In this document: in pieces, positions 11,545 through 63,844 of the stretch
Numbering within the stretch: the stretch's first letter is position 1
How the letters are laid out: every line of letters starts with the position of its first letter
Origin: a virus
Direction: 5' to 3' (one strand)
IMG/VR virus record: IMGVR_UViG_3300028384_001046
Location: 1-64,000 of that record
DNA: 64,000 nt
Made by a program: the position numbers and the translations under genes
The notes under the pieces: model-generated
The model's database searches: none
What the model saw: the letters and a program-made list of their open reading frames with translations, nothing else
Told to the model about the DNA's origin: nothing

Positions 11545-11545
11545 A

Positions 11546-20533: not shown

Positions 20534-20534
20534 C

Positions 20535-20542
20535 TATAAATA
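20535..20542 (+). promoter_or_regulatory. T4-type late promoter
   Basis: Exact TATAAATA upstream of 20563. Confidence 0.8.
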
Positions 20543-20562
20543 ACAGAAAAAGTATTTGATCA

Positions 20563-21588
20563 ATGGCAAAACAAGGCATTAATACTGGTACTGCCCCTAA
20601 TGATGGCACTGGAGATACCCTGTTGGCGGGAACTCTAAAGATCAACGCAAACTTTGATGAAGTTTACGATGTTTTTGGTGATGGGGATAATCTTATCAGT
20701 TTTGTTTCTTTTGCTACTACTGCTGGGTATTCTACCAATGCTGGTATTGCATCTACGTCTACCTATGCTCAGACTGCAAGATATGTAACGTCAGATATTG
20801 ATATCAACACATCTGGTGTTGTTACTACATCATATGCCGATATCGGTAAGATTACTATTCAACAACCAGGAGCTATTACAGACGGTCCTATTGAGGTTGG
20901 ATTTGCAGCCACCATGTTTAGGATTAAAGCCGACGGCATGGTTGGAATTGGAACTTCTCTTCCAACATCTCAACTCCAAGTTGCATCATTCTCTTCCAGA
21001 CCTGCATTATGGGTTATTGCAAAAGATCAAGGACCCTCTTTTAGAGCTTCTGACGAAGATATTACTCCAGATAAGACTTTTATTGTCACAAAAGACGCCA
21101 ATATTGGCATTGGTACAAATGTTCCTGCTGCCAACCAAAGACTTGATGTTAGGGGCAATGTGACTACTCAAGGCATTGTTACTCTTGATGGCACTGTTGA
21201 CTTCAATAGTGATATTACTGAAACGGTAGTTAATGACTTTAATGATAATATAACCGTATCTGCTGCAGGAACACTTACCGTTGATTTGTCTCAGGGAACT
21301 GTGGTTCTTGGTGGAATTACTACTTCTATCAATACTTGGAATTTCACTAATGTTACTGCATTAAATAGTAAGGCAACTACGGCAACTCTTGTTATTAATG
21401 CTGGCGTTGGATACACTTACGGTGATGCTGTAAATGTAAATGGTGGACCTATCGCTGGTGGTGTTAGATGGGTTGGTGGAAATCCGCCACCTGCTTCAGA
21501 TGGAGAAGACATTTTAACATTCAGTATCATTAGAGATTCTACGGGTCTAACAAGAGTCTATTGTAGTAGTTCCATTAATATTAGCTGA
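20563..21588 (+). CDS. Baseplate/short-fibre protein with T4 gp9/gp10-like N-terminus
   Basis: MAKQGINTGTAPNDGTGDTL..KINANFDEVY; GxVGIGT fibre repeats. Confidence 0.75.
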   Translation: MAKQGINTGTAPNDGTGDTLLAGTLKINANFDEVYDVFGDGDNLISFVSFATTAGYSTNAGIASTSTYAQTARYVTSDIDINTSGVVTTSYADIGKITIQQPGAITDGPIEVGFAATMFRIKADGMVGIGTSLPTSQLQVASFSSRPALWVIAKDQGPSFRASDEDITPDKTFIVTKDANIGIGTNVPAANQRLDVRGNVTTQGIVTLDGTVDFNSDITETVVNDFNDNITVSAAGTLTVDLSQGTVVLGGITTSINTWNFTNVTALNSKATTATLVINAGVGYTYGDAVNVNGGPIAGGVRWVGGNPPPASDGEDILTFSIIRDSTGLTRVYCSSSINIS

Positions 21589-49600: not shown

Positions 49601-51113
49601 TGGTGGTGGATCTAGAATCCGTTCTGTTGGTGGTAACAACTCCTATGGTGACTATGGTGTTATTGCATCTGGTTTCTCCACTGAGGAGACCCCAAGAACC
49701 GCAAGAGTCTTTGGTGCCCTGATGGCCGTTAATGGCGCTACTAAGGCAGGTACACTGGCAATCGGTGCTACCATGTTCGGTGCAACATCTGGTGCTCGTG
49801 GATGGTTCCTGAATGACCAAACTGCTGCAGATAAGATCTACTTCAAGTATCATCCTGGTTACGGTTCGGTTGGTCTTGGAACCACTGGATTCGTAGATGG
49901 TGAAGTTGTCTGGTTCGGTGATGGTGGTGAAAATGGTGCTGGTATTGGTTCCATCACGATGTCTGGTGTTACATCTTCTATCAGTGGACAAAAGGGTACA
50001 ATCCTTGAAGTTGATAATGTCTCTTCAACTCTATTGGTTGGTGACGCACTTGGATTCTCCACAACTTCTTACGGTGATGATGATCTCTTCTATATCATCA
50101 ATACCATTACAAATGTCTCTGCCGCGACTACGTACACGTATTACACGACGACTGGCATCGCAACCATAACATATCCAGAACGTGCTACATTGACCATTTC
50201 CCCAGAGAAATCTACTGGAACATGGGATACCAGAGAAGTTACTGGTGCAGGTTCTACTATTAGTATTAGAACTCTCTTCTCACAGTGTCGCCTAACAGGT
50301 CATGACTTCCTGAGTGTTGGTACTGGTAGTAAGGCAGAAACCAACTATCCTGATGTTGATCAAACTAGAATTATTCAGGGTAATGAAACTAATTACTTCG
50401 GTCCTGGTAAAGTCTTCTTTGTCTCTACTGACCAAGGTGGTAACTTCAGAGTTGGTCAATTCTTCTCCGTTGACCAGTTGACTGGTCGCGCCACCCTGGA
50501 CGCCTCCGCGTTCAACCTGTCTGGTCTGACTGAACTGAGACTGGGTGCAATTGGTGGTCAGGTCGGTGAGGCAATTAACGAATTCTCCTCTGACGAATTC
50601 ATGTCTGGTCTGTCCAATAATGCATGTCCTACTGAGGCTGCAGTTGCTGGATTCCTCCGCCACGGTTCGATGGGAACCAAGGCCATGACTCCTCCAGTTG
50701 GTACTACCGCTCAAAGACCTGGAGGCGTTGATGAAGAGTTCAACACTGGTGCTCTAAGATTTAACACCGATCTCGGTGCTCTTGAGTACTACAACGGAAC
50801 CAGTTGGATACAACCTGGAATTCAAGCTTATTCTACCGTGACTACTTCTGGATCAGTTGTATCTGGCACCACTTACTTTGTCAATACCAATGGCGGTCAA
50901 GTCACTCTAGATCTTCCCGCATCTCCTAATCTTGGAGATACCATTAGATTCTATGACGTTGCGAAGACATTCGATTCTAACAACTTAATTGTTGGACGTA
51001 ATGGAAAACTGATTCAGGGTGACGCTGCTAATATGACTGTTGCTCTTGAGGGTGCGTCATTTGAACTCACCTTCTCTGGTGACTCCTATGGTTGGAGACT
51101 GTTCTCCGTCTGA
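46680..51113 (+). CDS. Long tail fibre-like protein
   Basis: MAEFRLGR; W..Y..xDxVxYGG.xY carbohydrate-binding-type repeats; beta-helix-like middle; RLTGHDFL..GTG, STDQ.GNFRVG. Confidence 0.8.
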   Translation: MAEFRLGRVKFNWTGNWAPSKSYLIDDIAKFGGNTYVAVANHTSTASTANFYTDLGNWNLHIEGLEQRGEWTTDTYYRVNDLVTYANVVYRVTEAHTSVGTFIDETKVVQYVAGFNAEGDWSLEEDYQKGDVVNYNGSSYVAITTSVAGFVPPQFIGLGTGSKWNILADGLAGAAITYTEGTYYRGDMILYGGNTYRHKVGVTTNVSPIQVGLGSVGDAARDGSSTWDLLVKGFSFVGNFSTTFAYHPGHVVRYGSNSYVSVGNSFVNIDPVVGVGTYWETLAAGDSAAALNTKGDLLTYNGGPARIGIGSTGYALAVQSNGLPGYEIVGNQTRIYYVDSEDGIDTNNGLAPNLAFRTIKQACRSARPDNAITDFDYTAATGVATITSPGHGLANTGTFIQLAEIEFECLSGGNVFNILGMTYNKSVGLATITAIGLGAAPEIGIGATVRLRNLGVSFTGNANFDHQFSSALDDAVITGGDYIHNFVAATAGAVNVVTGSLAGSQLTPTNAVYSANSGELEITVGSHGLSISDTISFDANSMTFTCQMDGGTANKTYPRTTDPAYGVNLPISAITANTFTVNVGPSPIVNFNVSDATYNQTTGDMTMTIGIHQLDVGTSVKLLTEGLIFKCSMDGYLTDHAYPRATAGDGSPDPAYNTALSITAATTTTITVNVGTASSSQTINGKFPAVHTQASTFQFPVQAVPDANSIVVNVGASQTDYLYVSGGTAFVGVTTTVYPDKVSKSYFEVLQVIDADTIRTNVGISTINHTYVRGGHLTDLTPAILKLSASQFYEQLPIKVPPFTSIVGNSLRGTQVLPASGISDDSVTPNNRSQMFQMSDATTLQALSMKGMEGFYYDPQAPYVLDNANLRTGIGTTACGVVCALNPDSPINNKSPYVKDCTVFSDNAYDYGRFGGGAVGVFCDGGVHDEGAKSMVFDSFTQVSSDGAGFILDKSAIAEIVSCFTYYCQWGYYSGGGSRIRSVGGNNSYGDYGVIASGFSTEETPRTARVFGALMAVNGATKAGTLAIGATMFGATSGARGWFLNDQTAADKIYFKYHPGYGSVGLGTTGFVDGEVVWFGDGGENGAGIGSITMSGVTSSISGQKGTILEVDNVSSTLLVGDALGFSTTSYGDDDLFYIINTITNVSAATTYTYYTTTGIATITYPERATLTISPEKSTGTWDTREVTGAGSTISIRTLFSQCRLTGHDFLSVGTGSKAETNYPDVDQTRIIQGNETNYFGPGKVFFVSTDQGGNFRVGQFFSVDQLTGRATLDASAFNLSGLTELRLGAIGGQVGEAINEFSSDEFMSGLSNNACPTEAAVAGFLRHGSMGTKAMTPPVGTTAQRPGGVDEEFNTGALRFNTDLGALEYYNGTSWIQPGIQAYSTVTTSGSVVSGTTYFVNTNGGQVTLDLPASPNLGDTIRFYDVAKTFDSNNLIVGRNGKLIQGDAANMTVALEGASFELTFSGDSYGWRLFSV

Positions 51114-51180: not shown

Positions 51181-51963
51181 ATGGCCAACTATAGATCATA
51201 TAAAAAAGTCACAGCGTCCCAGGTTCCTGATGGGTCTATCACCATTGAAAAACTCGCAAATGGTGTTGGACCCTCTTGGTGCGTAAAAACTTTCTATGGT
51301 GATCCAGGAGTTTGTACTCCTGGTTGTTGCTGTAACTGGACAGTACCAGCGGGAGTTGCTAAACTAACTTGGGAACTATGGGGTGCTGGAGGAAACGGAC
51401 ACGGAGCCTGTTCTTGTAGAAGATGCCATCACTATAGAGGTGCTGGTGGAGGTTCTTTCACAACCAAAACAATCGATACTACCCCAGGATGTTCATATAC
51501 AGTATGTGCTGCTGGAGTTTACAGATGTTGTTCACGAGAATGTGTAGGATGTTACGGATGTGCATCGTATGTTAATGGATATAACTTGACTAACTTCTGT
51601 GCAGTTGGTGGTGGTAGAGGAGAGGCTAATACAGATTGGTCCAACCTCTGTCATTCAACAATTGCTTGTTGCGTTCAACCTGGAAGTTATAATAGTGACT
51701 TTGGAATGAATGCACATTGGCCTGGATTCAGTGGTCACTGGAGTTGCCATTGTGGACTATCTGTAACTCAAACTTGTTCTGGTGGTGCTCCATTTATTGG
51801 AGTTGGTAATAAAACGTATTCTTCACACTGCTGGATTCGTTGTGGTTGCTGGTCCTCTCCATATGGTGCAGGTGGACAGGGTGCAATGACTTCATATTGT
51901 GAGAGATGCTGCGGACAAGGTGGTACAGGTGGATCTGGACTTGTAAGACTCACATACATGTAA
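51181..51963 (+). CDS. Gly/Cys-rich putative fibre-tip adhesin, paralog 1 (28 Cys)
   Basis: WTVPAGV..ELWGAGG...GGTGGSGLVRLTY glycine-rich domain. Confidence 0.7.
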   Translation: MANYRSYKKVTASQVPDGSITIEKLANGVGPSWCVKTFYGDPGVCTPGCCCNWTVPAGVAKLTWELWGAGGNGHGACSCRRCHHYRGAGGGSFTTKTIDTTPGCSYTVCAAGVYRCCSRECVGCYGCASYVNGYNLTNFCAVGGGRGEANTDWSNLCHSTIACCVQPGSYNSDFGMNAHWPGFSGHWSCHCGLSVTQTCSGGAPFIGVGNKTYSSHCWIRCGCWSSPYGAGGQGAMTSYCERCCGQGGTGGSGLVRLTYM

Positions 51964-51975
51964 TAGAGGGAATCA

Positions 51976-52770
51976 ATGGCTAGCTATTTAAGTTACAAAA
52001 AAATTCAAGGCGATCAGTTAGAGGATAATATCCTCGACGCTGCTAAGTTCTCCACATCCCCGACTTCCACGTTTGGAGTGAAGTGGATCTACGGGACAAT
52101 GTGTCGTTGTTCTCCTGGTTGTTGTTGTCTTTGGACTGTACCTACTGGAGTTAAGAAACTCTGGATTCAGGCTTGGGGATCTGGTGGTAATGGTGCAGGT
52201 GCATGTTCTTGTAATAGATGCCAACACTATAGAGGTGCAGGCGGTGGATTTTATAATAGTGTCATGATTGATACTGCTTCAGGATGTCAGTATCGTGTCT
52301 GTGCAGGTGGTGTATATCCATGTCTCTCTATAGAATGTTGTGGATGTATTGGTTGTGCATCATATGTTAATGGATATAACTTGAGCAACTTCTGTGCATA
52401 TGGTGGTTCATGTGGTCACGCTAATAGTAGTTGGTCAACCTCATGTAACGCAACTTGGCATTGCTGTGTAGCACCAACATCTAATGGTGGTCAGTTTGGT
52501 ATGGGTAATCTGCGTGACAGTTGGACCAATGGTGGATATTCCACTAACCGTGGCTGGTGTCACTGCTATGTTCAGATGACTAACCCAACTGCCGCTCCAT
52601 TTATTGGAACAGAAGTTATTCAATCTATTCGTGAGTGCTGGATTCGTTGTGGTTGCTGGATCGTTCCTTATGGTAATGGTGGACAAAATGCAATGACTAC
52701 CTATTGCGGACGTTGCTGTGGTCAAGGTGGTACTGGCGGTGGCGGTCTCGTCAAAATTACGTACTTCTGA
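51976..52770 (+). CDS. Gly/Cys-rich putative fibre-tip adhesin, paralog 2 (28 Cys)
   Basis: Colinear with paralogs 1 and 3. Confidence 0.7.
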   Translation: MASYLSYKKIQGDQLEDNILDAAKFSTSPTSTFGVKWIYGTMCRCSPGCCCLWTVPTGVKKLWIQAWGSGGNGAGACSCNRCQHYRGAGGGFYNSVMIDTASGCQYRVCAGGVYPCLSIECCGCIGCASYVNGYNLSNFCAYGGSCGHANSSWSTSCNATWHCCVAPTSNGGQFGMGNLRDSWTNGGYSTNRGWCHCYVQMTNPTAAPFIGTEVIQSIRECWIRCGCWIVPYGNGGQNAMTTYCGRCCGQGGTGGGGLVKITYF

Positions 52771-52796
52771 TAAATAACTATTAAATAGGACTCCTA

Positions 52797-53594
52797 ATGG
52801 CTAATTACGCTTCTTATAAACAGATTAGTAACTCCCAAATCGTTGATGGGTCTATTACAAACACCCAGTTAGTACAGGGCGCTTTCTCGAACTGGAACGT
52901 CAAATGGATCTATGGTGATGCACAGGCAATGACATCTGGTTGTTGCTGTAATTGGACAGTACCCACTGGAGTCCAAAGGGTTTATTGGGAGCTCTGGGGT
53001 GCTGGAGGAAACGGACACGGAACGTGTTCTTGTAATAGATGTTATAACTGGCATGGTGCTGGTGGAGGATACTATAACTCAAAATCAATGGGTGTCAGTG
53101 CTGGAGACAGTTACACTGTTTGTGCTGCTGGTGTTTATCGTTGTTGTTCCAGAGATTGTGTTGGATGTAGAGGATGTAGTTCCTATGTAAACGGAACTGG
53201 ACTATCTAACTTCTGTGCTGCTGGTGGAACAAGAGGTTGTGCAACTAACTCTTGGAGTACTACTTGTTTCTCTGCATTCCAAGATTGCTGCGTTCAACCA
53301 GGAGCATGGGGTGGAGACTTTGCAATGGGTAACCACGCTGGTGGTACTAGAAAAGGATATGGTGGTGGTGGTTGGAACTGTCACTGTTACTATAACGAAA
53401 GTAGACCCACTGGTGCTCCATTCATGGGTACTATGGGTGTCAACTCTGCTGTTAGACACTGTTGGGTTCGTTGTGGTTGCTGGAGAGTTCCTTATGCACA
53501 TGGTGGTCAGGGCGCAGTTACATCTTACTGTGAGAGATGTTGCGGACAAGGTGGAACAGGTGGTAGTGGTGTTGTTAAAATCAGCTACATGTGA
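52797..53594 (+). CDS. Gly/Cys-rich putative fibre-tip adhesin, paralog 3 (25 Cys)
   Basis: Colinear with paralogs 1 and 2. Confidence 0.7.
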   Translation: MANYASYKQISNSQIVDGSITNTQLVQGAFSNWNVKWIYGDAQAMTSGCCCNWTVPTGVQRVYWELWGAGGNGHGTCSCNRCYNWHGAGGGYYNSKSMGVSAGDSYTVCAAGVYRCCSRDCVGCRGCSSYVNGTGLSNFCAAGGTRGCATNSWSTTCFSAFQDCCVQPGAWGGDFAMGNHAGGTRKGYGGGGWNCHCYYNESRPTGAPFMGTMGVNSAVRHCWVRCGCWRVPYAHGGQGAVTSYCERCCGQGGTGGSGVVKISYM

Positions 53595-53613: not shown

Positions 53614-53636
53614 AGACCCCGAAAGGGGTTTTTTTT
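53614..53636 (+). terminator. Intrinsic terminator
   Basis: GACCCC-GAAA-GGGGTT hairpin + T-run. Confidence 0.85.
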
Positions 53637-53645
53637 ATGTTTTTT

Positions 53646-53653
53646 TATAAATA
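53646..53653 (+). promoter_or_regulatory. T4-type late promoter
   Basis: Exact TATAAATA. Confidence 0.8.
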
Positions 53654-53690: not shown

Positions 53691-54467
53691 ATGGCAACAG
53701 AAATTATTTCTCACGCTTGGAACATGCCAGTTCCAAATGACTTCCTAAGAGATCACTCTTTTAGTGAAGGTAGAACAAGAGCCGTCAGTTATGACGGACC
53801 AGATAAGATTTGGCTTCAAATCGGTGCAGATGGTACTGAACTGTATGGTCCACTGACTGAAGATGATATGGCTGATGGGCGCCCAGTCCCAGCTGATGTT
53901 ACTCAGATGTTTGAAGTAAACTGTACTGAGTATCCTCTCATCTGTCAGTTAAGAGCACCAGTTATCAACGAAAGACAAGAAGATAGAAGTGTAGATGATG
54001 AAATTCGTCATCCAGATTGTCCTGATATGACTGCCCAAGGTTACAGGACCTTTACTTACAATGAAACTCTTTTTGTGGAAGACATCTATGACGCTTCAAC
54101 TGTCAGAGTTGTTGATGGAGTTCCAACAGTTCATGCCTTTACCGTTAATGAAAAACTGATTGGTAGAGCAGATGATTTAACTTGGGATGATATCAGATCT
54201 CATAGAAACGCTCTTCTAGATGGTAGTGATCAATCTATTGCAGAGGACATGCCTGAAGATATGAAGAATAGTTGGAAAGCATATCGCCAAAAGTTGAGAG
54301 ATCTCCCTGCAGAGCTTGAGGCTGCTGGAGTTAGTCCAAATATTGCATACTATATGTTCCCACAACAGCCATTCTTTACTACTCCACCTTCTGATCCAGA
54401 ACCACCTGCAGATGCAACTGCAGGTTGGGCTCCACCAGAAAGTGGTGTTATGAATGGGGTTTCCTGA
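53691..54467 (+). CDS. Phage tail fibre assembly chaperone-like protein
   Basis: WDDIRSHRNALLDGSD...WKAYRQKLRDLP motif. Confidence 0.8.
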   Translation: MATEIISHAWNMPVPNDFLRDHSFSEGRTRAVSYDGPDKIWLQIGADGTELYGPLTEDDMADGRPVPADVTQMFEVNCTEYPLICQLRAPVINERQEDRSVDDEIRHPDCPDMTAQGYRTFTYNETLFVEDIYDASTVRVVDGVPTVHAFTVNEKLIGRADDLTWDDIRSHRNALLDGSDQSIAEDMPEDMKNSWKAYRQKLRDLPAELEAAGVSPNIAYYMFPQQPFFTTPPSDPEPPADATAGWAPPESGVMNGVS

Positions 54468-54487
54468 ATCTGATATATAATATGATT

Positions 54488-54511
54488 AGGGGGATATAAT
54501 CCCCCTTTTTT
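54488..54511 (+). terminator. Intrinsic terminator
   Basis: AGGGGGAT/ATCCCCCT stem + T-run. Confidence 0.75.
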
Positions 54512-54524
54512 AATGGGAGGAATT

Positions 54525-55157
54525 ATGTTTGAACTGAATGAATCTCGTAAAACAACAGTAAAAAAAGTCTACGATCATGCTAAAAATGAACTGGGACATG
54601 TATGGAGGTATGTAATTACTGTAGATGATTTTTATAAAAACCCAGATGAAGTGAGGGAGTTTGCTTTAAATTGTACCCCCAAAAAAGATAAAAAGTATAC
54701 TGGCAATCTTATTGGGTCTAGAGTTGTTGAAGATGTAAATGGTTTTGATCAGAATTTAAGACAAGTTTTTGAAAAAGCATGTCAATTTGATTTTTGGAAT
54801 CCAGAGTTCGATGAAACTTTTTGGAGAGACACAAAATTTATGGTAAATGTCACCACCTCAGATGATATTGAAACCAGATTTAATGAGAGAAAACACACTT
54901 ATACATTCCATAAAGACTCCACCAGTTATAAGTGGGCATCATTAATCTATCTCAATAAAGAAGAGGAGTGTGATGGTGGAACCAACTTTTATGCGTGGAT
55001 GCCAGAAGATCCTTGCGCTACACCTAGATTGGAATATAGTATAGAAATGAAGTATAATAGAATGGTTTTATATGAGTGTGATCATATGCATGGAGCTGTC
55101 CTAAAAAAAGGTATGTTCAGTGATTTCCCGAGACTAACACAAGTGTTATTCATGTAA
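54525..55157 (+). CDS. DUF6445-like 2OG-Fe(II) oxygenase
   Basis: VDDFYKNPDEVR, HKD, IYLN..GGT, MKYNRMVLY..H, RLTQ; GGAGG RBS before ATG 54525. Confidence 0.75.
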   Translation: MFELNESRKTTVKKVYDHAKNELGHVWRYVITVDDFYKNPDEVREFALNCTPKKDKKYTGNLIGSRVVEDVNGFDQNLRQVFEKACQFDFWNPEFDETFWRDTKFMVNVTTSDDIETRFNERKHTYTFHKDSTSYKWASLIYLNKEEECDGGTNFYAWMPEDPCATPRLEYSIEMKYNRMVLYECDHMHGAVLKKGMFSDFPRLTQVLFM

Positions 55158-55217
55158 TTTTGGTGTACTAAATAAATCAGAATAGATCATTCTTTATCAT
55201 CCCGTTTGGAGTTGTAT

Positions 55218-56372
55218 ATGAGACCCAAGGCATTTTTTATTAATGGAGGAGCTGGCAGAGTACTTTGCTCCATCCCTGCATTTGAAAAATATGCAGAAGA
55301 ACATGATGATTTTATCATTGTTGCTGAAGGAGGCACTGACTTTTTTAAGGGTCATCCCACCTTAGATGGTAAAGTCTATGATGTTTGGCACAAGAATTTG
55401 TTCCAAGAACATCTGAAACACAGAGATTGTGTTTCTCCAGAACCATACAGAATGTGGCATTACTACAACCAGAAGTGTAGTTTGACACAGGCTTTTGATA
55501 TGGAAATCAACGGTCTAGAAGAACCTAGAGAACTTCCCAAACCAACTCTCAACCTCACTAAGATGGAGGTTATTGCTGGTTACAATATGGTTCAGGAAGT
55601 AAAAGCAGTAACTGGTAAAGATAAAGTAGTTGTTATCCAACCCTTCGGTAGAGGTGTCGAACAAGTAGGTGACTTTATTGCAGACGCTTCTTCTAGAAGC
55701 ATGTCTCTAGTAAACACTGTAGACATCATCAATGACCTTAAAAAGGATTATGGTGTCATTGTCATGTCCGAAATTCAATTCCCTGTAGAAGAAAACGAAG
55801 ATAAGTCTAAGTATAAAATTGCAAGACCCCAGATTGAAGACATTCGAGTTTGGGCATCTGTAATTGATGTTGCAGACCACTTCCTAGGTGTGGATAGTAT
55901 TGGTCAACATATCTGTAAGGCTTTAGATAAAAAGGCAACCGTTGTAATCGGATCCACATATCCAGTCAATATTTCTTATCCAGAAGATAAGAACTTTGAT
56001 ATCATTGATATTGGTTTGGATAAGAGAAAATATTCTCCCATTAGATTGACAATGGATGAAGCTGTTGATCGTTATAATGATCAATCAATGGAAATGTCTA
56101 AAGATGATATTAGTAAAGTTCTAAGTTCTGTTAGAAAAGCTATGGGTAAACCCGCTACTTTTAAGGGAACTTACACTCCTGTTCAACAACAGCAAGATTG
56201 TCCTACATGCCCACCAGGAACTAAGACAACTCCCGCCGTTGCACCAGGAAGCGCTGCAATGATGCCGCAACAACAATGGAATCAACCACCAGTTATCGCG
56301 GAGAAACCCAAAAAACCAAAAGTAGGATTCAAACAGGAAGTAAAGAATCTCTTAAAGACTGAAACTAAGTGA
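55218..56372 (+). CDS. GT9-like (ADP-heptose heptosyltransferase-like) glycosyltransferase
   Basis: NGGAGRVLCSIPA, VVIQPFG, ADHFLGVDSIGQHICKAL...VVIGST match RfaC/RfaF-type motifs. Confidence 0.7.
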   Translation: MRPKAFFINGGAGRVLCSIPAFEKYAEEHDDFIIVAEGGTDFFKGHPTLDGKVYDVWHKNLFQEHLKHRDCVSPEPYRMWHYYNQKCSLTQAFDMEINGLEEPRELPKPTLNLTKMEVIAGYNMVQEVKAVTGKDKVVVIQPFGRGVEQVGDFIADASSRSMSLVNTVDIINDLKKDYGVIVMSEIQFPVEENEDKSKYKIARPQIEDIRVWASVIDVADHFLGVDSIGQHICKALDKKATVVIGSTYPVNISYPEDKNFDIIDIGLDKRKYSPIRLTMDEAVDRYNDQSMEMSKDDISKVLSSVRKAMGKPATFKGTYTPVQQQQDCPTCPPGTKTTPAVAPGSAAMMPQQQWNQPPVIAEKPKKPKVGFKQEVKNLLKTETK

Positions 56373-56381
56373 GGTATTTAA

Positions 56382-58178
56382 ATGTCACAATGGATTGCGG
56401 CTATTGCCCGAGGACATAACTCGGGTCTTTGTCTCCTGAAAGATGGAGAAATTGTATTATCGATTGAGGAAGAAAGACTTTCTAGGAACAAGTATGATGG
56501 TGGTCCATATGCTTGTATGACCAGAATCCTGGATTTTACTGACAAACTAGACTATCTTGTTATTGCACATACCCAACCACTAAGTGAGGCTGGTCATTGT
56601 GATTTTAGTGGAGATCCAATCTATGTTGCATTAGCAAGAAAGTTGGGGTTGATTGATAGACATGCAAACCCACATGAACATCCACAAGTTATTGACCTAA
56701 GTTCTACTCATCATAAACTTCATGCAGCATGTGCATTTTATAGATCAGGTTTTGATCGCGCTGCTGCAGTTGTTGTTGATGGTGCAGGCACTTTTATTCC
56801 CATGAATATTAATGGGGAAAATGAAATGACATGGGAACTAGAGTCCATGTTTAATTGTGAGTATCCATCCGAATTTAAAACTGTCTACAAGCACCAAGGT
56901 GGAAGAGGTCCATGGGGATCTATTAGATTTGAAGAGTTTAGTAGTGAGAGAGAAGGTGAAGAAGGCACTCATGAGATGATTCTTGATGAGAGCGCTGGCA
57001 TTACCAAAGCGTATGAAGCGGTAACTCAATATTGTGGTTGGGCACCTATCGAAGCTGGTAAGACTATGGGTTTATTCCCATATGGAAAACCCAACGATCA
57101 TATTCCAGATGTATATACCGATTATAATGGTACTGCAACATGGAAAACATCTAATAGGGACCTTATTGTACCAACCTATCCTAACGGTGCCGTAGTCAAC
57201 CAGGGGCGGTTTAAGTTCCTTCAGACTGACTATGACTATGAAGGAGATAAGACCCTCTTAGAGAACCGTAGAGACATGGCATACGCCATTCAAGTAGAGT
57301 CTCAGCAAATGGTTTTGGATCTTATTCGTAAAGTTGTAGATATGACTGGTCAAACTAATGTTGTATTGACTGGTGGATATGCATTAAATTGTGTTGCTAA
57401 CTATTGGTATCTTGAACAACTCAAAGATGAAGGTATTAACTTATTCGTAGAACCAGTAAGTAATGATGCTGGTACTGCAATTGGAGCAGCACTCCTTCAA
57501 TATCATAGAGTAACGAAAGATGCACAAGTCCGTGAACCACTAAAAACCCTTTATACTGGATTTGAATACATGTATGCAACCGATGAAATTGTAGATACTG
57601 CAGATAAGTATGAGTCTACGAGAGTCTTTGAAGCTACAAACAAAGATGTAATTGATCTAATTACCAACAAAAATATTGTTGCTGTTTTCCAAGGTAGATC
57701 TGAAGCTGGTCCTAGAGCACTGGGCAATCGTTCTATTCTATATGATCCTCGCGATCCTGATGGAAAAGACTTTGTTAATAAGGTAAAACGTCGTGAATAT
57801 TTCCGACCATTCGCTGGGTCAATTCTAAAAGAACATGTTCATGAATGGTTTGATCTTCGTGGCATGGATGAAACTCCATTTATGATGTATGCTGTTAAGT
57901 GTAAGGAGGGTATTGAGGAAAAAATTCCTGCAATTATTCACGTTGATGGAACTTGTAGAATCCAAACAGTCACTGAAGAACAGAACAAAAATTATCATGA
58001 TCTGATTAGAGAGTTCTATGAAGCTACTGGTTGTCCTATTGTCTTCAACACTTCTTTTAATCTGGGTGGCGAGCCTCTCGTTGAAACACTTGATGACGCT
58101 TGCAGAACCCTCGCTAACTCTGATATTGAATACCTGTACTTGCCCGAATATGGTTTGATGATTGAGGTTAAAAACTAA
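56382..58178 (+). CDS. O-carbamoyltransferase (NodU/CmcH/TobZ family), full length
   Basis: GHNS, EEERLSR.KYD, HHKLHA, VVDGAG, GKTMGL.PYG, GGYALNC, DAGTAIG, EAGPRALGNRS, KRREYFRPFA, HVDGTCR.Q, NTSFN. Confidence 0.92.
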   Translation: MSQWIAAIARGHNSGLCLLKDGEIVLSIEEERLSRNKYDGGPYACMTRILDFTDKLDYLVIAHTQPLSEAGHCDFSGDPIYVALARKLGLIDRHANPHEHPQVIDLSSTHHKLHAACAFYRSGFDRAAAVVVDGAGTFIPMNINGENEMTWELESMFNCEYPSEFKTVYKHQGGRGPWGSIRFEEFSSEREGEEGTHEMILDESAGITKAYEAVTQYCGWAPIEAGKTMGLFPYGKPNDHIPDVYTDYNGTATWKTSNRDLIVPTYPNGAVVNQGRFKFLQTDYDYEGDKTLLENRRDMAYAIQVESQQMVLDLIRKVVDMTGQTNVVLTGGYALNCVANYWYLEQLKDEGINLFVEPVSNDAGTAIGAALLQYHRVTKDAQVREPLKTLYTGFEYMYATDEIVDTADKYESTRVFEATNKDVIDLITNKNIVAVFQGRSEAGPRALGNRSILYDPRDPDGKDFVNKVKRREYFRPFAGSILKEHVHEWFDLRGMDETPFMMYAVKCKEGIEEKIPAIIHVDGTCRIQTVTEEQNKNYHDLIREFYEATGCPIVFNTSFNLGGEPLVETLDDACRTLANSDIEYLYLPEYGLMIEVKN

Positions 58179-58585
58179 TGAAGACAGTTTTTGTTAATGG
58201 TACATTTGATATCCTTCATCCAGGACACATTGAATTATTTCGAGTAGCAAAGTCTCTTGGTGATCGTGTAGTCGTCGCTACTGATAGTGATGCTAAGATC
58301 AAAAAAGACAAGGGACCAACTAAACCGATTAATGATTTGTGTTATCGAGTATCAATGCTTAAGTCAATTAAGTATATTGATGTTGTTCATTATTTCCATG
58401 ACAGATCTGGTTTGGAGAGTTTAATTAGGCTCTATAGACCAGATATTCTCCTTTTGGGGGGTGATTGGGAAGGCGGAGATGTTGTCGGTAAAGATCTTGC
58501 CAAAGAAGTTAGATTTCTTCCAAGAGTAGGAGACTACTCATCTAGTGCTGTTATTAATAAAATTCTAACAAATCATTCAACCTGA
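58178..58585 (+). CDS. Heptose-1-phosphate nucleotidyltransferase (HldE domain II/HldC-like)
   Basis: NGTFDILHPGH (HxGH), DSD..IK..KG..KPIN...R, GGDW, YSSS. Confidence 0.85.
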   Translation: MKTVFVNGTFDILHPGHIELFRVAKSLGDRVVVATDSDAKIKKDKGPTKPINDLCYRVSMLKSIKYIDVVHYFHDRSGLESLIRLYRPDILLLGGDWEGGDVVGKDLAKEVRFLPRVGDYSSSAVINKILTNHST

Positions 58586-59370
58586 TGAATTATAATATAT
58601 TAGTTATTGGCGACTCCTGTGAAGATGAATATATCTATGGAGATTGTTCTAGATTAAATCCAGAGGGACCCATTCCCGTTCTTGATAAAACTTCTACAGA
58701 AGTCAAGGCAGGAATGGCAGCAAATGTTAATGCAAACTTGAAGTCACTTGGAATTAAAACTAATCTAATTACTCAAAAAGAGACAATCAAAAAAACAAGA
58801 TTTGTTGATAGAAAGAGTAATTATCAATTACTTAGAGTTGATTCTACACCTGAGGTGACTCCTTTAAGCGCTCCTCAGGTCAAGATGGCATTCATGCACA
58901 GTCGATATGATGCATTAGTAATATCCGATTATAATAAGGGGTTTCTTACAATCCAATCAATGCAGACTATTTGTACGTATTTTAGGGGTCCTATTTTCAT
59001 TGACACTAAAAAGACTAAGTTATTCCAACAATCTAATGTTTTTTACAAAATAAACAAGAAGGAATATGATCTACTTGATAGGGAATATATGCCCAGTGAT
59101 ACTAATCTAATCGTCACTTTGGGAGCAAACGGATGCAAATGGAGTGGTATCCATTTTCAACCAAGAACTGTCAATGTATTTGACGTATGCGGAGCTGGTG
59201 ATACCTTTCTCGCGGCATTAGTTTCTGAGTTTCTTGTTACAAAAGATATGCAAAGGTCTATTGATCTTGCAAATAGAGCAGCTTCTATCTCTGTAGAAAA
59301 CCCAGGAACATATCAACTAACTAGATCTGATATTGAGAGGATTTATAATGAGCGAATTCAAACAACCTAA
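58585..59370 (+). CDS. PfkB-family heptose-7-phosphate kinase (HldE domain I/HldA-like)
   Basis: VIGDSCEDEYIYG...RLNPEGPIPV, GMAANV, KTRF, SDYNKG, DVCGAGDTF. Confidence 0.85.
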   Translation: MNYNILVIGDSCEDEYIYGDCSRLNPEGPIPVLDKTSTEVKAGMAANVNANLKSLGIKTNLITQKETIKKTRFVDRKSNYQLLRVDSTPEVTPLSAPQVKMAFMHSRYDALVISDYNKGFLTIQSMQTICTYFRGPIFIDTKKTKLFQQSNVFYKINKKEYDLLDREYMPSDTNLIVTLGANGCKWSGIHFQPRTVNVFDVCGAGDTFLAALVSEFLVTKDMQRSIDLANRAASISVENPGTYQLTRSDIERIYNERIQTT

Positions 59371-59893
59371 TCCAATATTTTGGATGCCTTTCTTTATCGA
59401 ACCAATCGATGTCGATAAATTAGAATTTAAAGAGGAACCAAACTATAAACCAACGTTTATTTCAAGAACTCCAACTACAATGGAGGAGGATTGTCTCACT
59501 GATGAATCATACAATTATCTTGGTAGATTGATTTGGGAATGTATTGGTCAATATACAGAAAAACCTTTTTTCATTGGTTCTGTTTGGCGTAATAAGTATG
59601 GAAAGACTGATTGGCAAGATCCACATATTCATTCTGGAGCTCAATGGAGTTTTGTAATTTACGTGGATGTTGAAGAGTCCAAGACAGTTTTTCTTTCTCC
59701 AAGCAGACACGATCAGATGAATCAATGGGGATATTTGGGTAACGCATTTCCTATTGATTATTCACCTAAAGTTTCTCCTGGAAATATTATAATTTTCCCA
59801 TCATTCATCGAACACTTTGTTCCCCCTGGAAATGAAGGTATAACTATATCAGGTAACATTTATTATGATCAACCCCCTGGAGGACCATGCTAA
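59348..59893 (+). CDS. 2OG-Fe(II) oxygenase (TIGR02466-like)
   Basis: WQDPHIH, WSFVIY, IIFPSFIEHFV, ISGN. Confidence 0.75.
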   Translation: MSEFKQPNPIFWMPFFIEPIDVDKLEFKEEPNYKPTFISRTPTTMEEDCLTDESYNYLGRLIWECIGQYTEKPFFIGSVWRNKYGKTDWQDPHIHSGAQWSFVIYVDVEESKTVFLSPSRHDQMNQWGYLGNAFPIDYSPKVSPGNIIIFPSFIEHFVPPGNEGITISGNIYYDQPPGGPC

Positions 59894-61044
59894 AAAAACA
59901 AGTAGGGTTTAATCTGACACATGATTCATCGGTATCAGTTTTAGATGAAGATGGTGACATAGAGCTTTTTGTAGAAGAAGAAAGATTAAGCAGAATTAAA
60001 CATGATAGCATTCCATTCAAAGCATGTGATCTTGTTCTTGGTGGACTTACTTTGCAAGAGATTGAAAAATATGAACTGGGTGCAAGTGGATTAATATACA
60101 GAGATGAATATGGAGCAACAAGATTAAATACTTATTATGACCCACTGATTATTAATACTGTTAAATCATTAAAAACTGCCGTACAGGATCGCTCCATTGA
60201 AAACTATGAACTAATAAAGAAAAAATTTGATATATTTTATGAGCATCACTTATTTCATGCTTATTGTGGATTCTATAATTCTGGATTTGATGATGCAGTT
60301 ACAGTTGTAGTTGATGGTATGGGAAATTCTGTAATTGATAATACGGGGTCTTTCAACGAAGATACAAATGAGGTTGCTTCAATATTCGATGCATCTTATC
60401 CAAAGAATATGAATTATTTGGGAGGAATGGCTACACATTCTACTCATAGTCCTTGGGAGAGTCAAAATACAAACCATGATGGTAATTGGACATGTGGAAT
60501 TGGCATGGCATATTCTGCAGTATCTGCTTACATGGGTTTTGGACAACTTGGATCTGGAAAACTAATGGGTCTTGCTCCGTATGGTAAAGAAGATCCAAAT
60601 ATTAGACCTTTTCTTCTTGACAATGGATTTCATGTAAATTCATCTCTTTTTTATAGGACCACAAATGGATGTAATTTTGTTCCATATGATTATTTGCCTC
60701 GATGTGGAGATGGAGAATCTTTCGATATTGAAAATAATTTTGAAAAATTAGCTAATCTTGCTTGGAGGATTCAAGAAGATTTTCAGAAACACATGTTGAA
60801 AATTTTATTGGATGCTCTTAAAATGACAGGACGTAAAAATATTATTTTAACTGGTGGATGTGCTTTAAATTGTGCTGCAAATTACTGGTATTTGGATAAG
60901 TTGCCAAAAGATGTTAAACTATATGTGGAACCCATCAGTACTGATGCTGGAACTAGTCTTGGGATAGCCAAGGCTCAACATTATTCCAAAACTGGTTCCA
61001 TGAAGAAACACCCACTTAAAACCTTATACTTAGGACCCGAATGA
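59887..61044 (+). CDS. Carbamoyltransferase, N-terminal (Kae1-like) domain only
   Basis: HDSS, EEERLSRIKHD, EHHLFHA, VVDGMG, GKLMGLAPYG, GGCALNC, DAGTSLG; ends LYLGPE. Confidence 0.85.
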   Translation: MLKKQVGFNLTHDSSVSVLDEDGDIELFVEEERLSRIKHDSIPFKACDLVLGGLTLQEIEKYELGASGLIYRDEYGATRLNTYYDPLIINTVKSLKTAVQDRSIENYELIKKKFDIFYEHHLFHAYCGFYNSGFDDAVTVVVDGMGNSVIDNTGSFNEDTNEVASIFDASYPKNMNYLGGMATHSTHSPWESQNTNHDGNWTCGIGMAYSAVSAYMGFGQLGSGKLMGLAPYGKEDPNIRPFLLDNGFHVNSSLFYRTTNGCNFVPYDYLPRCGDGESFDIENNFEKLANLAWRIQEDFQKHMLKILLDALKMTGRKNIILTGGCALNCAANYWYLDKLPKDVKLYVEPISTDAGTSLGIAKAQHYSKTGSMKKHPLKTLYLGPE

Positions 61045-61367
61045 GATATAACGTGGATATAGACGGCACTATCTGTATTCCTGGAAAGGGAGAAGGTAGA
61101 TATACTGAAGCTGTACCTATCCCAGAAAGGATCGCTAAAATAAATGATCTATATATTAAAGGACATCAAATAATCTACCATACTGCTAGAGGTATGGGTA
61201 CATTTGATAATGATAGAGAAAAGGCTAAAGAAAAGTATTATGACTTCACCCTAAAACAGCTTCGCAGTTGGGGGTGTATGTTCCACGATCTTTTCCTAGG
61301 GAAACCTGCCGCCGACTATTACATTGACGACAAAGGAGTAAACTCTGATGATTTCTTCAAGACCTAG
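61041..61367 (+). CDS. HAD-superfamily phosphatase (capsule-biosynthesis type)
   Basis: DIDGT, HTARG, GKP.ADYYIDDK. Confidence 0.8.
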   Translation: MRYNVDIDGTICIPGKGEGRYTEAVPIPERIAKINDLYIKGHQIIYHTARGMGTFDNDREKAKEKYYDFTLKQLRSWGCMFHDLFLGKPAADYYIDDKGVNSDDFFKT

Positions 61368-61722
61368 AGCAGGGGAACCGATCAAATTCGTATCCAAAGG
61401 ATGGGGATATGAAAAATGGATCGTTAACTCCGAACAATATTGTGGTAAACTCCTTTTCATTGCAAAAGGAAAACAATGTTCTTGGCACTTTCATAAAAAG
61501 AAAGACGAAGTTTTCTACGTCCAAAGTGGAAAAATTAAAATCTACTATGGATGGGACGACAATATTGAGATGGCTAGTGTATCTGTCTTGGAACCAGGAG
61601 ATAAGTTTCATGTTCCTATTGGAATGAAACATAGAATGTATGGTCTTTCGGATACTGAACTATTTGAGTTTAGTACAGAACACTTTGATGAAGACAGTAA
61701 TAGAATTCAACCTGGGGATTGA
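61348..61722 (+). CDS. Cupin (sugar isomerase-like)
   Basis: KGWGYE, YCGKLL, SWHFHKKKDEVFY, H, EFST.H. Confidence 0.8.
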   Translation: MISSRPRAGEPIKFVSKGWGYEKWIVNSEQYCGKLLFIAKGKQCSWHFHKKKDEVFYVQSGKIKIYYGWDDNIEMASVSVLEPGDKFHVPIGMKHRMYGLSDTELFEFSTEHFDEDSNRIQPGD

Positions 61723-62327
61723 TGAAAGCAGAAAAGATAACTGACCTGATTGTGGTTTTGAAAAATCACATTCCAGATGATACTTGTGATGAAATACTAG
61801 AATGGTTTGAATTAAATAAACATCTACAAACAGATGGATGTGTTTATAGCACAGAAGGAGATCAAGATAAAGGTGCCAAAGTTGACAAAGATTTTAAGAA
61901 TGCTATTCAAACTCTAGTTCCTCCAGGAGCATCTATCTCAGACAAAATGACAGAGATCACCATGTCTGCCTTCAGAGAAGCTGGTTCTAGATATCCAGTT
62001 CCAGAAAATAGTATGACCTTAAATGATTATTGCGTTAGAGTATATCCCAAAGACGAAGGGATATTTAAGACTCATGTGGATCAACACGCATTTGGAACCG
62101 TAAGTAGATTATTTGCTTGCATTATGTATCTTAATGATGTTGAGATTGGTGGGGAAACTGAATTTCCAGACTGGAACATAGCAGTAAAACCAGAGAAAGG
62201 AAAAGTTTTATTGTTCCCATGCAATTATCTTTTCAAACATAAAGGCAATGTTCCTATCTCAAACGAAAAATATATTGCTACAAACTTCATTAACTTTATG
62301 ATGCAAGATATTCCTCTAGTGTCTTGA
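61722..62327 (+). CDS. 2OG-Fe(II) oxygenase, prolyl-4-hydroxylase-like
   Basis: HVD, YLNDV..GGETEF, LLFP..H.G..P..KY. Confidence 0.85.
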   Translation: MKAEKITDLIVVLKNHIPDDTCDEILEWFELNKHLQTDGCVYSTEGDQDKGAKVDKDFKNAIQTLVPPGASISDKMTEITMSAFREAGSRYPVPENSMTLNDYCVRVYPKDEGIFKTHVDQHAFGTVSRLFACIMYLNDVEIGGETEFPDWNIAVKPEKGKVLLFPCNYLFKHKGNVPISNEKYIATNFINFMMQDIPLVS

Positions 62328-63099
62328 GTCTATAATTCAACCATTCCATATCTGCACAGGTGTAGTCTTGATACTTACCTTTCAGATGATCAGGGAAAGG
62401 AATCATTTCGATTTCTCCCCCTTCTTTTTTAGCAATTAACTCTGCAACTCTCTGGAATGACATTGGTTTACCAGTTCCGATGTCATAGATTCCACTAGGA
62501 GCATCATTATTCATGACAATATTGACTATATCATCTACACATACAAAGTCTCGATAAAACTTATCGGATCCTTCAAATAATTTTAGTTTTCCTGTCTCTT
62601 TAATCTGTTTAGTAAACTTTGAAACGGGACTTGCTTGATCTCCCTTATGGTCTTCACCAGTTCCATATACATTAAAATATCTAAATCCTTGGATACTCTC
62701 AAACCGATCTAGATTGTCCAATACGTAATAATCTATGATTAGTTTTGAAATTGCATATTGATTTAAGGGATTTATTTTTCTACATTCTTTTGTTTGATTG
62801 CCATACACAGATGCTGAAGACGCATACTTAATAGGAATCTTGTGTTCTATCGCATGAGAGAAGAGATGAGCAGTAAAGGTTTGGTTGTAGTGGGAGATCT
62901 TCATCCAGTTTTTTTCTGTAGTGGATGAGATTGCTCCATTATGAATGATTAGATCTACATTTTCCCAACCATTGAATTTAGCCATGAAATCCCATGCATT
63001 ATCCATATCAATACCGATAACGTCACGTTCTGCTTCATTTTCAAGATATTTTAAAAAGTGGGATCCAATGAATCCCTTATAACCAGTAAGTAAGATCAT
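62296..63099 (-). CDS. hldD: ADP-L-glycero-D-manno-heptose-6-epimerase-like
   Basis: TGYKGFIGS, GAISSTT, YASSASVYG, PLNQYAISK, FRYFNVYG..E.HKG..AS, RDFV, KYQ.YT.AD. Confidence 0.85.
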   Translation of the reverse strand: MILLTGYKGFIGSHFLKYLENEAERDVIGIDMDNAWDFMAKFNGWENVDLIIHNGAISSTTEKNWMKISHYNQTFTAHLFSHAIEHKIPIKYASSASVYGNQTKECRKINPLNQYAISKLIIDYYVLDNLDRFESIQGFRYFNVYGTGEDHKGDQASPVSKFTKQIKETGKLKLFEGSDKFYRDFVCVDDIVNIVMNNDAPSGIYDIGTGKPMSFQRVAELIAKKEGGEIEMIPFPDHLKGKYQDYTCADMEWLNYRLKTLEEYLAS

Positions 63100-63806
63100 C
63101 AGTATATTATCCTTGGAATAGGTAGAAATATTGATTGAGCGAGTCTATACACCTGTTGATCAAAGTGACCTGGATGTTGATATACACCATGAAGAAAATT
63201 ATCTGGATATACAATCAATCTATTGTATTTCATTTCTGCTAAGTGAACAAGTTCCCAAGGACCAACACTATCTCTTACAATATCTTCGTTCCAGATTCCA
63301 GATTGGTTTACATCAACACAACTCATTCCCTTATAAGTATAAAATCCAGTGCCACCATGACATTCTTCTGGCGTGTTTAAATAAATTACACCTGCCCAAC
63401 CCCTAACTAAATTTTTACTATCTATAGGAGAATCTACGTGTGGAATAAGTACTTGATCTGATGCAGTTACATTTACCGAGAATGTAAGTTGTTTGCATCC
63501 AAAGACAAATCGTTCTTCTTCTTCTTTTGACAATCCATAAACTGATTTGGCTATGTCAATCCAGATTGGAACTAAATGATCAAGATCAAAATTTGCACTA
63601 ACTCTACCACCTGGAACTGCTCCACAAATTCTTCGATTAAAAGTTGGAGGAATTCTTAGAGCCAAATCTCGAACCTGATCGGGATTTTTATAGAAGTTAT
63701 CGATGTATACGATTGGTTTTTCTTCCCACCCCATTAACTCTACTCTTGCATCCAATTCATCATTGATTGCAAAGACTTCGGATTCATTTATAAAGTACTT
63801 TTTCAT
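63099..63806 (-). CDS. DUF6445-like 2OG-Fe(II) oxygenase, paralog of 54525..55157
   Basis: IDNFYKNPDQVR, PHVD, IYLNTPEECHGGT, MKYNRLIVY..H, RL.Q. Confidence 0.75.
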   Translation of the reverse strand: MKKYFINESEVFAINDELDARVELMGWEEKPIVYIDNFYKNPDQVRDLALRIPPTFNRRICGAVPGGRVSANFDLDHLVPIWIDIAKSVYGLSKEEEERFVFGCKQLTFSVNVTASDQVLIPHVDSPIDSKNLVRGWAGVIYLNTPEECHGGTGFYTYKGMSCVDVNQSGIWNEDIVRDSVGPWELVHLAEMKYNRLIVYPDNFLHGVYQHPGHFDQQVYRLAQSIFLPIPRIIY

Positions 63807-63844
63807 GAGACATAAATATGTTGAGAACCCTATTATTATTAGGA

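Follow-up and report, generated by a model that had tools for sequence, protein, structure and literature searches.

A tail-fibre-linked gene cassette for predicted heptose synthesis, transfer and carbamoylation in a T4-like cyanomyovirus

Gene content of the cassette

The window analysed here is a 64,000-nucleotide stretch (positions 1 to 64,000) of the IMG/VR virus record IMGVR_UViG_3300028384_001046, which comprises 110,915 bases and is estimated to be 51% complete. The virus is a T4-like cyanomyovirus whose nearest named relative is Synechococcus phage S-SSM7 (genus Lipsvirus), with ∼50-76% protein identity across the region of interest. We describe a cassette of twelve genes packed at 54513-63806, between a tail-fibre chaperone gene (53691-54467) and the neck gene gp13 (from 63818). 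The encoded families make a chemistry of heptose donor synthesis, GT9-fold transfer and carbamoyl tailoring a well supported prediction, for which an adjoining tail-fibre or adhesin protein is our tentative choice of acceptor.

The + strand carries ten of the genes (54513-62327) and the - strand the other two (62296-63806). The genes are separated by gaps of a few bases or overlap by 1-38 nt, in keeping with an initial annotation of this DNA, made from the sequence alone, that had called them tightly coupled. That annotation counted eleven genes where there are twelve, the number to which its own list of families adds up; profile, PDB and motif checks located every family that it named in the place assigned to it. 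The first gene encodes a DUF6445 2-oxoglutarate (2OG)-Fe(II) oxygenase (54513-55157; PF20043 and PF13640, with HxD at residue 133). It is followed by a divergent GT9-fold glycosyltransferase (55218-56372; T4-GC 302, phrog_8954), a full-length O-carbamoyltransferase (56382-58178; PF02543 and PF16861), a heptose-1-phosphate adenylyltransferase resembling HldE domain II (58178-58585; TIGR02199, E = 1.5e-32) and a PfkB sugar kinase resembling HldE domain I (58585-59370; TIGR02198, E = 3e-41). The + strand continues with a 2OG-FeII_Oxy_5 family protein (59333-59893; PF13759), a half carbamoyltransferase (59887-61044; PF02543 only), a small HAD phosphatase that is a candidate heptose-1,7-bisphosphate 7-phosphatase (61041-61367; TIGR01689; DIDGT motif), a metal-binding cupin that is a candidate sedoheptulose-7-phosphate isomerase (61348-61722; Cupin_2) and a 2OG-FeII_Oxy_3 oxygenase (61719-62327; PF13640, E = 4e-10; HVD motif). 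The - strand carries a short, 267-residue HldD-like ADP-heptose 6-epimerase (62296-63099) and a second DUF6445 2OG-Fe(II) oxygenase (63099-63806; PF20043). The four oxygenase-family proteins are regarded as accessory.

The GT9-fold transferase

The 55218-56372 product is labelled 'hypothetical' in every isolate genome that carries it, and GC 302 has no other annotation in the records of P-SSM2, S-SSM7, S-SSM6a, P-SSM5, S-CAM1 and S-CAM3. The protein itself does not match PF01075, the Pfam GT9 model, at E <= 0.01 (13.1 bits against a gathering cut-off of 22), and a direct phmmer search of the PDB with it found nothing. PF01075 is matched by 31 of 69 diverse relatives (E <= 0.01; best 1.2e-8), and the family profile aligns to WaaF and WaaC across the DSxGxH donor motif, in hhalign alignments that covered the C domain only. 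An AlphaFold model of the protein has a pLDDT (predicted local distance difference test) of 90. Its top 11 structural matches all have the GT9 fold (Z 18.5-22.9), and the next, to other GT-B folds, drop to Z 11.8. The GT9-fold matches comprise 3tov, WaaF (Z 20.5), TibC (Z 19.7), WaaC (Z 18.9) and a GT9-like plant NDH subunit, with a Foldseek probability of 1.0, and the model aligns with 3tov, 1psw, TibC and WaaC with an r.m.s.d. of 3.3-4.1 Å over 251-280 residues (VIA-align). TibC is thus level in Z with the LPS enzymes WaaF and WaaC, and the alignment with it runs from its residue 96 onward, the first ∼95 residues of TibC having no counterpart. The PF01075 matches of the relatives, the WaaF/WaaC profile match and the modelled fold support placement of the protein in GT9; the earlier description as 'GT9-like' thus stands on these three grounds, without a Pfam GT9 match of the protein's own.

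The donor motif D-S/T-x-G-x-H is present, with D226 and H231 invariant, also in the Vibrio and Aeromonas homologues discussed below. The N-terminal Gly loop of WaaC contains Asp13, which we take to be the catalytic aspartate. The phage protein has Arg14 at this position (GRVLCSIPAF compared with GDVLHTLPAL), as placed by motif alignment and aligned structural ranges rather than by residue-level superposition, and the arginine is kept in at least 90% of the 69 sequences. An EPY motif is nearly invariant in this subfamily and specific to it. From about residue 320 the protein ends in a disordered, Q/P/K-rich tail (the last ∼60 residues); an Ephrin_rec_like match is spurious, as it sits in the CPTCPPG segment of this tail. 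ADP-heptose is a predicted donor that follows from co-location with the heptose genes alone. One search of public sequence data returned 3140 family members, and in one metagenomic protein (P0258, 558 residues) a GT8 domain (residues 47-212) is fused to the phage GT9-like domain (residues 252-554).

Heptose-synthesis genes

The nucleotidyltransferase keeps the HxGH motif as HPGH. The four top PDB matches of the epimerase are all ADP-heptose 6-epimerases (HldD), including the E. coli enzyme (1eq2, E = 5.5e-49), and its YxxxK motif is kept. The HAD phosphatase has 108 residues, is of the capsule-phosphatase EcbF/BcbF type (PDB 9iqw and 1xpj) and is the sole HAD protein of the cassette; no GmhB model match was obtained for it. 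Its phrog_1238 label 'phosphoheptose isomerase' was rejected, the protein being a phosphatase. The cupin has both metal-binding motifs (HxHx4E...H), and its weak similarities are confined to the PMI domain of GMP/PMI, L-ribose isomerase and D-lyxose isomerase, while some viral relatives match Lyx_isomer or MannoseP_isomer. A 'cysteine dioxygenase' label on this protein is a generic cupin label and does not fit.

No SIS-type GmhA was found with PF13580 in the full record of the window, nor with PF13580 and TIGR00441 in the complete genomes of S-SSM7, P-SSM2, S-SM2 and P-TIM68. In each of the three genome arrangements that we encountered, the cupin and the HAD phosphatase occur together with the kinase, nucleotidyltransferase and epimerase. 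Because the two travel with the heptose genes even in S-SM2 and P-TIM68, where these genes lie in a different context (see below), they are likely to stand in for GmhA and GmhB. Metal cupins catalyse the interconversion of fructose 6-phosphate to mannose 6-phosphate, which is the same chemistry as the isomerization required here.

Carbamoyltransferases and oxygenases

The full carbamoyltransferase (598 residues) matches PDB entry 7xb6, NovN, TobZ and GdmN with E values of 1e-45 to 1e-56 and has the features of the TobZ/NodU/NovN enzymes, namely a Kae1-like N-terminal domain, a YrdC-like C-terminal domain and an HxxxH metal site. The half carbamoyltransferase (385 residues) is 37% identical to the N-terminal domain of the full enzyme and ends exactly at the domain border. 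It consists of the Kae1-like transfer domain with HxxxH kept, lacks the domain that forms carbamoyl-AMP and is found in some loci only. The two carbamoyltransferases of the initial annotation are therefore both PF02543 proteins, one complete and one reduced to the N-terminal domain.

A carbamoyltransferase next to a GT-B enzyme could also decorate hydroxymethylated DNA bases, in the manner of T4 glucosylation or of 5-carbamoyloxymethylcytosine, and a phage TobZ-family carbamoyltransferase does convert 5-hydroxymethylcytosine to the latter (PMC8670742). The hallmark of that system is an adjacent ThyA-family dCMP hydroxymethylase, and PF00303 is absent from the full record of the window, S-SSM7, P-SSM2 and S-CAM3. 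The neighbours in the cassette are sugar-nucleotide enzymes, and the carbamoyltransferases that adjoined glycosyltransferases in the same study lay on unmodified contigs (PMC8670742). We consider DNA hypermodification very improbable.

The four 2OG-Fe(II) oxygenases first proposed are indeed four members of these families, one of which lacks the HxD/E motif: the 59333-59893 protein (2OG-FeII_Oxy_5/TIGR02466 type) has PHIHSG in place of the expected iron motif, may bind metal differently or be inactive, and is present in some related loci only. The model of the second DUF6445 protein (pLDDT 92) has a confident 2OG-oxygenase fold with invariant H123, D125, H206 and R221. Its fold matches include the sugar-tailoring enzymes PolD, HygX and KanJ and the protein hydroxylases OGFOD1, PHD2, P4H and LH3, with neither group matching better. 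The suggestion that these hydroxylases create acceptor hydroxyl groups is left unsupported, because the oxygenases are optional and the fold is equally like that of sugar- and nucleoside-tailoring enzymes. Two misleading database labels were set aside: 'minor coat protein' (phrog_1644) belongs to a 2OG oxygenase with intact HxD...H...R, and 'DNA endonuclease V' matches likewise fall on 2OG oxygenases.

Fibre neighbours and transcription signals

Upstream of the cassette, on the + strand, lie a tail fibre protein of 1477 residues (46680-51113; phrog_9851 tail fibre, E = 0; CBM_5_12 repeats) and three Gly/Cys-rich paralogues of 260-265 residues with a Gly_rich_2 domain (51181-53594; PF21722; phrog_4205), which resemble adhesin-like fibre accessory proteins. 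A terminator-like hairpin follows the third paralogue (53614-53631), and TATAAATA, a T4-type late-promoter-like motif (53646-53653), precedes by 38 nt the start of the tail-fibre assembly chaperone-like protein (53691-54467; PF16778 Phage_tail_APC, E = 1e-10; phrog_4912 tail fibre assembly). Between the chaperone gene and the cassette is a hairpin with a T-run resembling an intrinsic terminator (54488-54506).

The window contains fewer copies of the late-promoter-like core ATAAATA than expected (10 compared with 22.6 ± 4.5), and all ten are on the + strand, at 9063, 20536, 30551, 38455, 39488, 45755, 46539, 52770, 53647 and 63812. The four copies of TATAAATA all lie shortly before a start codon, the ATG following the end of the motif at a distance of 21-43 nt. 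Such a pattern fits T4-type late promoters, with stray copies probably selected against. The core precedes the chaperone gene and, at 63812-63818 (+ strand), gp13. It abuts the first ATG of the gp13 frame (63818), and translation of gp13 may in fact begin at the following ATG (63846). Matches to sigma-70-like promoters occurred at chance level only. There is no space for a promoter downstream of the hairpin at 54488-54506, which makes reduced read-through transcription the most economical interpretation.

Conservation among cyanophages

Synteny was assessed by tblastn of the window proteins against 80 IMG/VR loci, S-SSM7 and P-SSM2; the 80 loci were retrieved by a single-protein scan and comprise relatives with at least 58% identity only. 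The upstream half of the recurring order is fibre, Gly/Cys-rich paralogue(s), chaperone, [DUF6445], GT9, full carbamoyltransferase, [variable], nucleotidyltransferase and kinase. From the kinase it continues with [variable], HAD, cupin, [2OG], HldD (opposite strand), [DUF6445] and, where the locus extends far enough, gp13. Seven core genes are constant (GT9, full carbamoyltransferase, nucleotidyltransferase, kinase, HAD, cupin and HldD), and the oxygenases and half carbamoyltransferase vary. The order fibre, Gly-rich paralogues, chaperone, GT9, carbamoyltransferase is kept in 80 of 80 loci and in S-SSM7, and the conservation of order over the 80 loci is far beyond chance. The co-occurrence with the Cys-rich paralogues that the initial annotation had proposed to follow across related phages is borne out: these genes lie ahead of the cassette in every one of the 80 loci, as do genes for Gly_rich_2 proteins in S-CAM3.

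The core cassette occurs in three cyanophage genera, Lipsvirus (S-SSM7), Charybdisvirus (S-CAM3) and Salacisavirus (P-SSM2), and in S-CAM3 and P-SSM2 the core is flanked by two fibre genes. Sullivan et al. 2010 (PMC3037559) raised the possibility, for the 'LPS genes' (LPS, lipopolysaccharide) of cyanophages, of functionless stuffer DNA acquired from bacteria. Gene order and open frames are kept over the 80 loci at 58-86% protein identity and over the three genera at 47-63%, the catalytic motifs are intact and the GC content of the cassette agrees with that of the phage, which makes this explanation scarcely credible.

The variable slots bear on a different possibility, that the cassette is a supplier or tailoring module in which a nucleotide-heptose is oxidized or carbamoylated for a larger phage-directed glycan or a natural-product-like small molecule, its linkage to fibre genes being historical. 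In S-SSM7 (15046-20714 of the locus) the interval between the carbamoyltransferase and nucleotidyltransferase genes has taken up additional oxygenases together with a tryptophan halogenase and a PF05175 methyltransferase, as if it were a hot spot at which tailoring genes insert. In the window, the slots between core genes are filled by 2OG oxygenases and the half carbamoyltransferase. The likeness of the DUF6445 fold to PolD, HygX and KanJ, tailoring enzymes for nucleoside or aminoglycoside sugars, points the same way, as do the building of oligosaccharides implied by the GT8-GT9 fusion P0258 and the GT2 and GT4 genes elsewhere in the P-SSM2 genome. On the other side, S-SSM7 and S-CAM3 keep the cassette without Pfam matches to GT2, GT4 or GT8, in searches spanning part of the glycosyltransferase families; the core seven are constant and the tailoring genes alone vary; and transporter or scaffold genes are absent. 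We regard a supplier role as improbable.

A third arrangement is found in S-SM2 (locus positions 9422-19726) and P-TIM68 (locus positions 9768-13531), in which the kinase, epimerase, nucleotidyltransferase, cupin and HAD genes form part of a non-structural glycan island. This island also holds a transketolase-like protein, a Zn alcohol dehydrogenase, an aldolase and other glycosyltransferases, lies near hli, tRNA and pstS genes and contains neither the GT9-like gene nor the carbamoyltransferase.

Relatives in other phages and in host genomes

All relatives of the 55218 subfamily among named isolates are phages. Outside cyanophages, the members of PHROG 8954 in the isolate database are only the N4-like Vibrio podoviruses, comprising SBP1 and the D5xx/K4xx series, and Aeromonas myovirus HJ05. 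Tail-fibre or tail-spike genes flank the GT9-like gene in the N4-like Vibrio phages; in HJ05 its neighbours are a fibre-like gene on one side and the tail sheath gene on the other. No heptose-synthesis genes lie beside it in the Vibrio phages or HJ05, as would be expected if, as we assume, the host supplies ADP-heptose.

The host survey covered 121 picocyanobacterial genomes of the family to which Synechococcus RCC307 belongs. HldD scores above its cut-off in one of the 121 and strong GT9 matches occur in about a dozen, with no real member of the phage GT9 subfamily in any; the HldE kinase is above cut-off in none of five marine strains. A passage in PMC4515613 (citing Snyder 2009) states that marine Synechococcus LPS has neither heptose nor Kdo (3-deoxy-D-manno-oct-2-ulosonic acid). 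The hosts thus seem, on genomic grounds, to be largely without a heptose pathway and to need its import; the reported lack of heptose in marine Synechococcus LPS that the initial annotation mentions agrees with the single HldD genome and, as far as that passage goes, with the LPS report. In one 1.8 Mb picocyanobacterial genome, an HldD-like frame of 265 residues (G071:C1:297477-298118; 201 bits) is as short as the phage form and may have reached this host from a phage.

Proposed pathway and acceptor

Family identities, intact motifs, synteny and the absence of GmhA are direct observations; the individual reactions, the donor and the acceptor are predicted from them as follows. The metal cupin would convert sedoheptulose 7-phosphate to D-glycero-D-manno-heptose 7-phosphate in place of GmhA, the PfkB kinase would form the 1,7-bisphosphate, the small HAD phosphatase would remove the 7-phosphate in place of GmhB, the nucleotidyltransferase would produce ADP-D,D-heptose and the HldD-like epimerase would yield ADP-L,D-heptose. 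The phage-specific GT9-fold transferase would then move heptose to an acceptor, and the TobZ/NodU-type enzyme would O-carbamoylate the heptose. Where present, the half carbamoyltransferase would probably draw carbamoyl-AMP from the full enzyme, and the 2OG oxygenases would provide optional tailoring. The cassette is probably expressed by read-through past the terminator that follows the chaperone gene, below the level of the structural genes. The outline of donor synthesis, transferase and carbamoyl tailoring drawn at the outset is supported by the families, the motifs and the GT9 fold.

We tentatively view the cassette as a self-contained glycosylation module brought into a host without heptose metabolism, with the adjoining tail-fibre or adhesin protein as the likeliest acceptor, a possible rather than an assured reading. 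The GT9-carbamoyltransferase pair is beside fibre genes at every locus examined, and a virion target is favoured because this linkage recurs in three cyanophage genera and two unrelated phage lineages. Several observations weigh against it. The kinase (141.6 bits compared with a TIGR02198 equivalog cut-off of 345), the nucleotidyltransferase (112.4 bits compared with 181.5 for TIGR02199) and the epimerase (228 bits compared with 274.6 for TIGR02197) all score below their cut-offs; for the first two these are by far the best families, and the epimerase is shorter than HldD. The arginine in place of aspartate may indicate a mechanism unlike that of known GT9 enzymes, or perhaps a protein that is not a conventional transferase. 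The oxygenases are optional, with none recognized in the S-CAM3 cassette and one in that of P-SSM2. The 80 loci are mutually related, so that their synteny is not independent evidence, and in S-SM2 and P-TIM68 the five synthesis genes reside in the non-structural island. The hairpin and T-run at the chaperone/cassette junction recur in 42 of 78 related loci with differing stem sequences; among S-SSM7 and the 80 related loci the stems vary by lineage (GGGAGC, GGAGGGG, AAGATCC, AAAAGAGACC and ATTCGGGAA) while the position is kept. Within the 9.3-kb cassette the ATAAATA core is absent (0 copies compared with 4.2 expected), and two genes (62296-63806) are on the opposite strand. Terminator, missing promoter core and reversed genes leave co-expression with the fibre genes no more than possible; of the late-module location originally noted, the position beside the fibre genes holds, qualified by these three features.

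The terminator and the missing promoter are among the features that speak for remodelling of the host surface, in which carbamoyl-heptose would be placed on host LPS or another envelope glycan and would block superinfection or the adsorption of progeny to debris. This is the classical view of the 'LPS genes', so labelled by Sullivan et al. 2010 (PMC3037559). It draws on the fact that GT9 enzymes are mostly LPS core heptosyltransferases, on Pseudomonas core clusters that join heptosyltransferases with the putative carbamoyltransferase WapO (PMC8005017), on the glycan island of S-SM2 and P-TIM68, where the heptose genes lie with other glycosyltransferases and apart from structural genes, and on the terminator that precedes a cassette without a late promoter. 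Yet host LPS, in the account given in the passage of PMC4515613, offers no Kdo or heptose acceptor, and the catalytic aspartate of the LPS enzymes is replaced by arginine in the phage protein. The GT9-carbamoyltransferase pair is always beside fibre genes, the GT9-like gene is also found among tail genes in lytic Vibrio and Aeromonas phages, and the phage subfamily was not found in the 121 host-family genomes. On this balance, we judge a host-surface target to be plausible, though less likely than a virion protein.

Virion glycosylation can be cast in a more specific form, in which the phage-specific Arg-for-Asp GT9 subfamily O-heptosylates fibre or adhesin proteins not only in T4-like cyanophages but also in N4-like vibriophages and an Aeromonas myovirus, with cyanophages bringing the full ADP-heptose pathway, including the cupin as a new sedoheptulose-7-phosphate isomerase, followed by carbamoylation. 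In all its parts this proposal is speculative and somewhat unlikely; if true, it would be the first case of heptosylated virion proteins and the first GmhA analogue outside the SIS family. A sugar on the fibre adhesins would add a new layer to host range and virion stability in viruses that control Prochlorococcus and Synechococcus. Cyanophages boost the pentose-phosphate pathway, and such a sugar would tie this boost to a structural use of sedoheptulose 7-phosphate. Whatever the target, three leads for enzymology are the cupin for GmhA, the mini-HAD for GmhB and the Arg-for-Asp GT9 subfamily.

Comparison with known systems

Virus-encoded glycosylation of capsids and tails, with glycosyltransferase genes beside structural genes, is established in mycobacteriophages. 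Those systems use other glycosyltransferase families and donors made by the host, whereas here the phage would supply the donor pathway and carbamoylation. The gene set itself corresponds to the cyanophage 'LPS genes' T4-GC 302-308, known since 2005-2010 and remarked on as being of unknown function (Sullivan et al. 2010, PMC3037559), which matches the earlier comment that such genes are usually labelled only in this way; announcements of cyanophage genomes regularly mention heptose genes (PMC7378029). The T4-GC 302-308 genes of P-SSM2, S-SSM7, S-SSM6a, P-SSM5, S-CAM1 and S-CAM3 form the same set in the same order behind fibre genes, with 47-76% protein identity. The window adds to them the DUF6445 pair, two further 2OG oxygenases and the half carbamoyltransferase, and lacks the halogenase and methyltransferase of S-SSM7.

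With respect to the bacterial ADP-L-glycero-β-D-manno-heptose pathway (GmhA, HldE, GmhB and HldD), the kinase, adenylyltransferase and 6-epimerase are homologous. In the phage, HldE is split into two genes, HldD is ∼40 residues shorter, a metal cupin is the candidate replacement for the SIS-type GmhA and an EcbF/BcbF-type mini-HAD that for GmhB. The transferase shares the GT-B fold (Z 18.5-22.9) and DSxGxH motif with WaaC and WaaF, which act in LPS synthesis, and with TibC/AAH, which O-heptosylate adhesins; TibC, a member of GT9, works with ADP-heptose (PDB 4rb4 title). It is only 9-15% identical to WaaC, WaaF and TibC, and the arginine at the Asp13 position, the EPY motif and the disordered tail are features of the phage protein. 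The Pseudomonas LPS inner core contains carbamoylated heptose (putative WapO, PA5005), and GT9 heptosyltransferases and a carbamoyltransferase share one cluster there as they do here (PMC8005017). The acceptor in Pseudomonas is Kdo-lipid A, which is lacking in the present hosts, and WaaP-type heptose kinases are absent from the cassette.

New here are the placement of GC 302 in GT9 by its fold, the Arg-for-Asp change across 69 sequences and a mobile synthesis module of five genes, cupin and HAD phosphatase among them. So are the survey of host genomes, the proximity to fibre genes in two unrelated phage lineages as well, the conserved terminator with missing late promoter and the argument against DNA modification. 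GC content climbs from ∼35% in the region ahead of the fibre gene to 42-45% across the fibre and adhesin genes and returns to 35-38% in the cassette. The region upstream of the fibre gene (window positions 11546-45750) contains four giant open reading frames of 2995, 2492, 2510 and 1705 residues.

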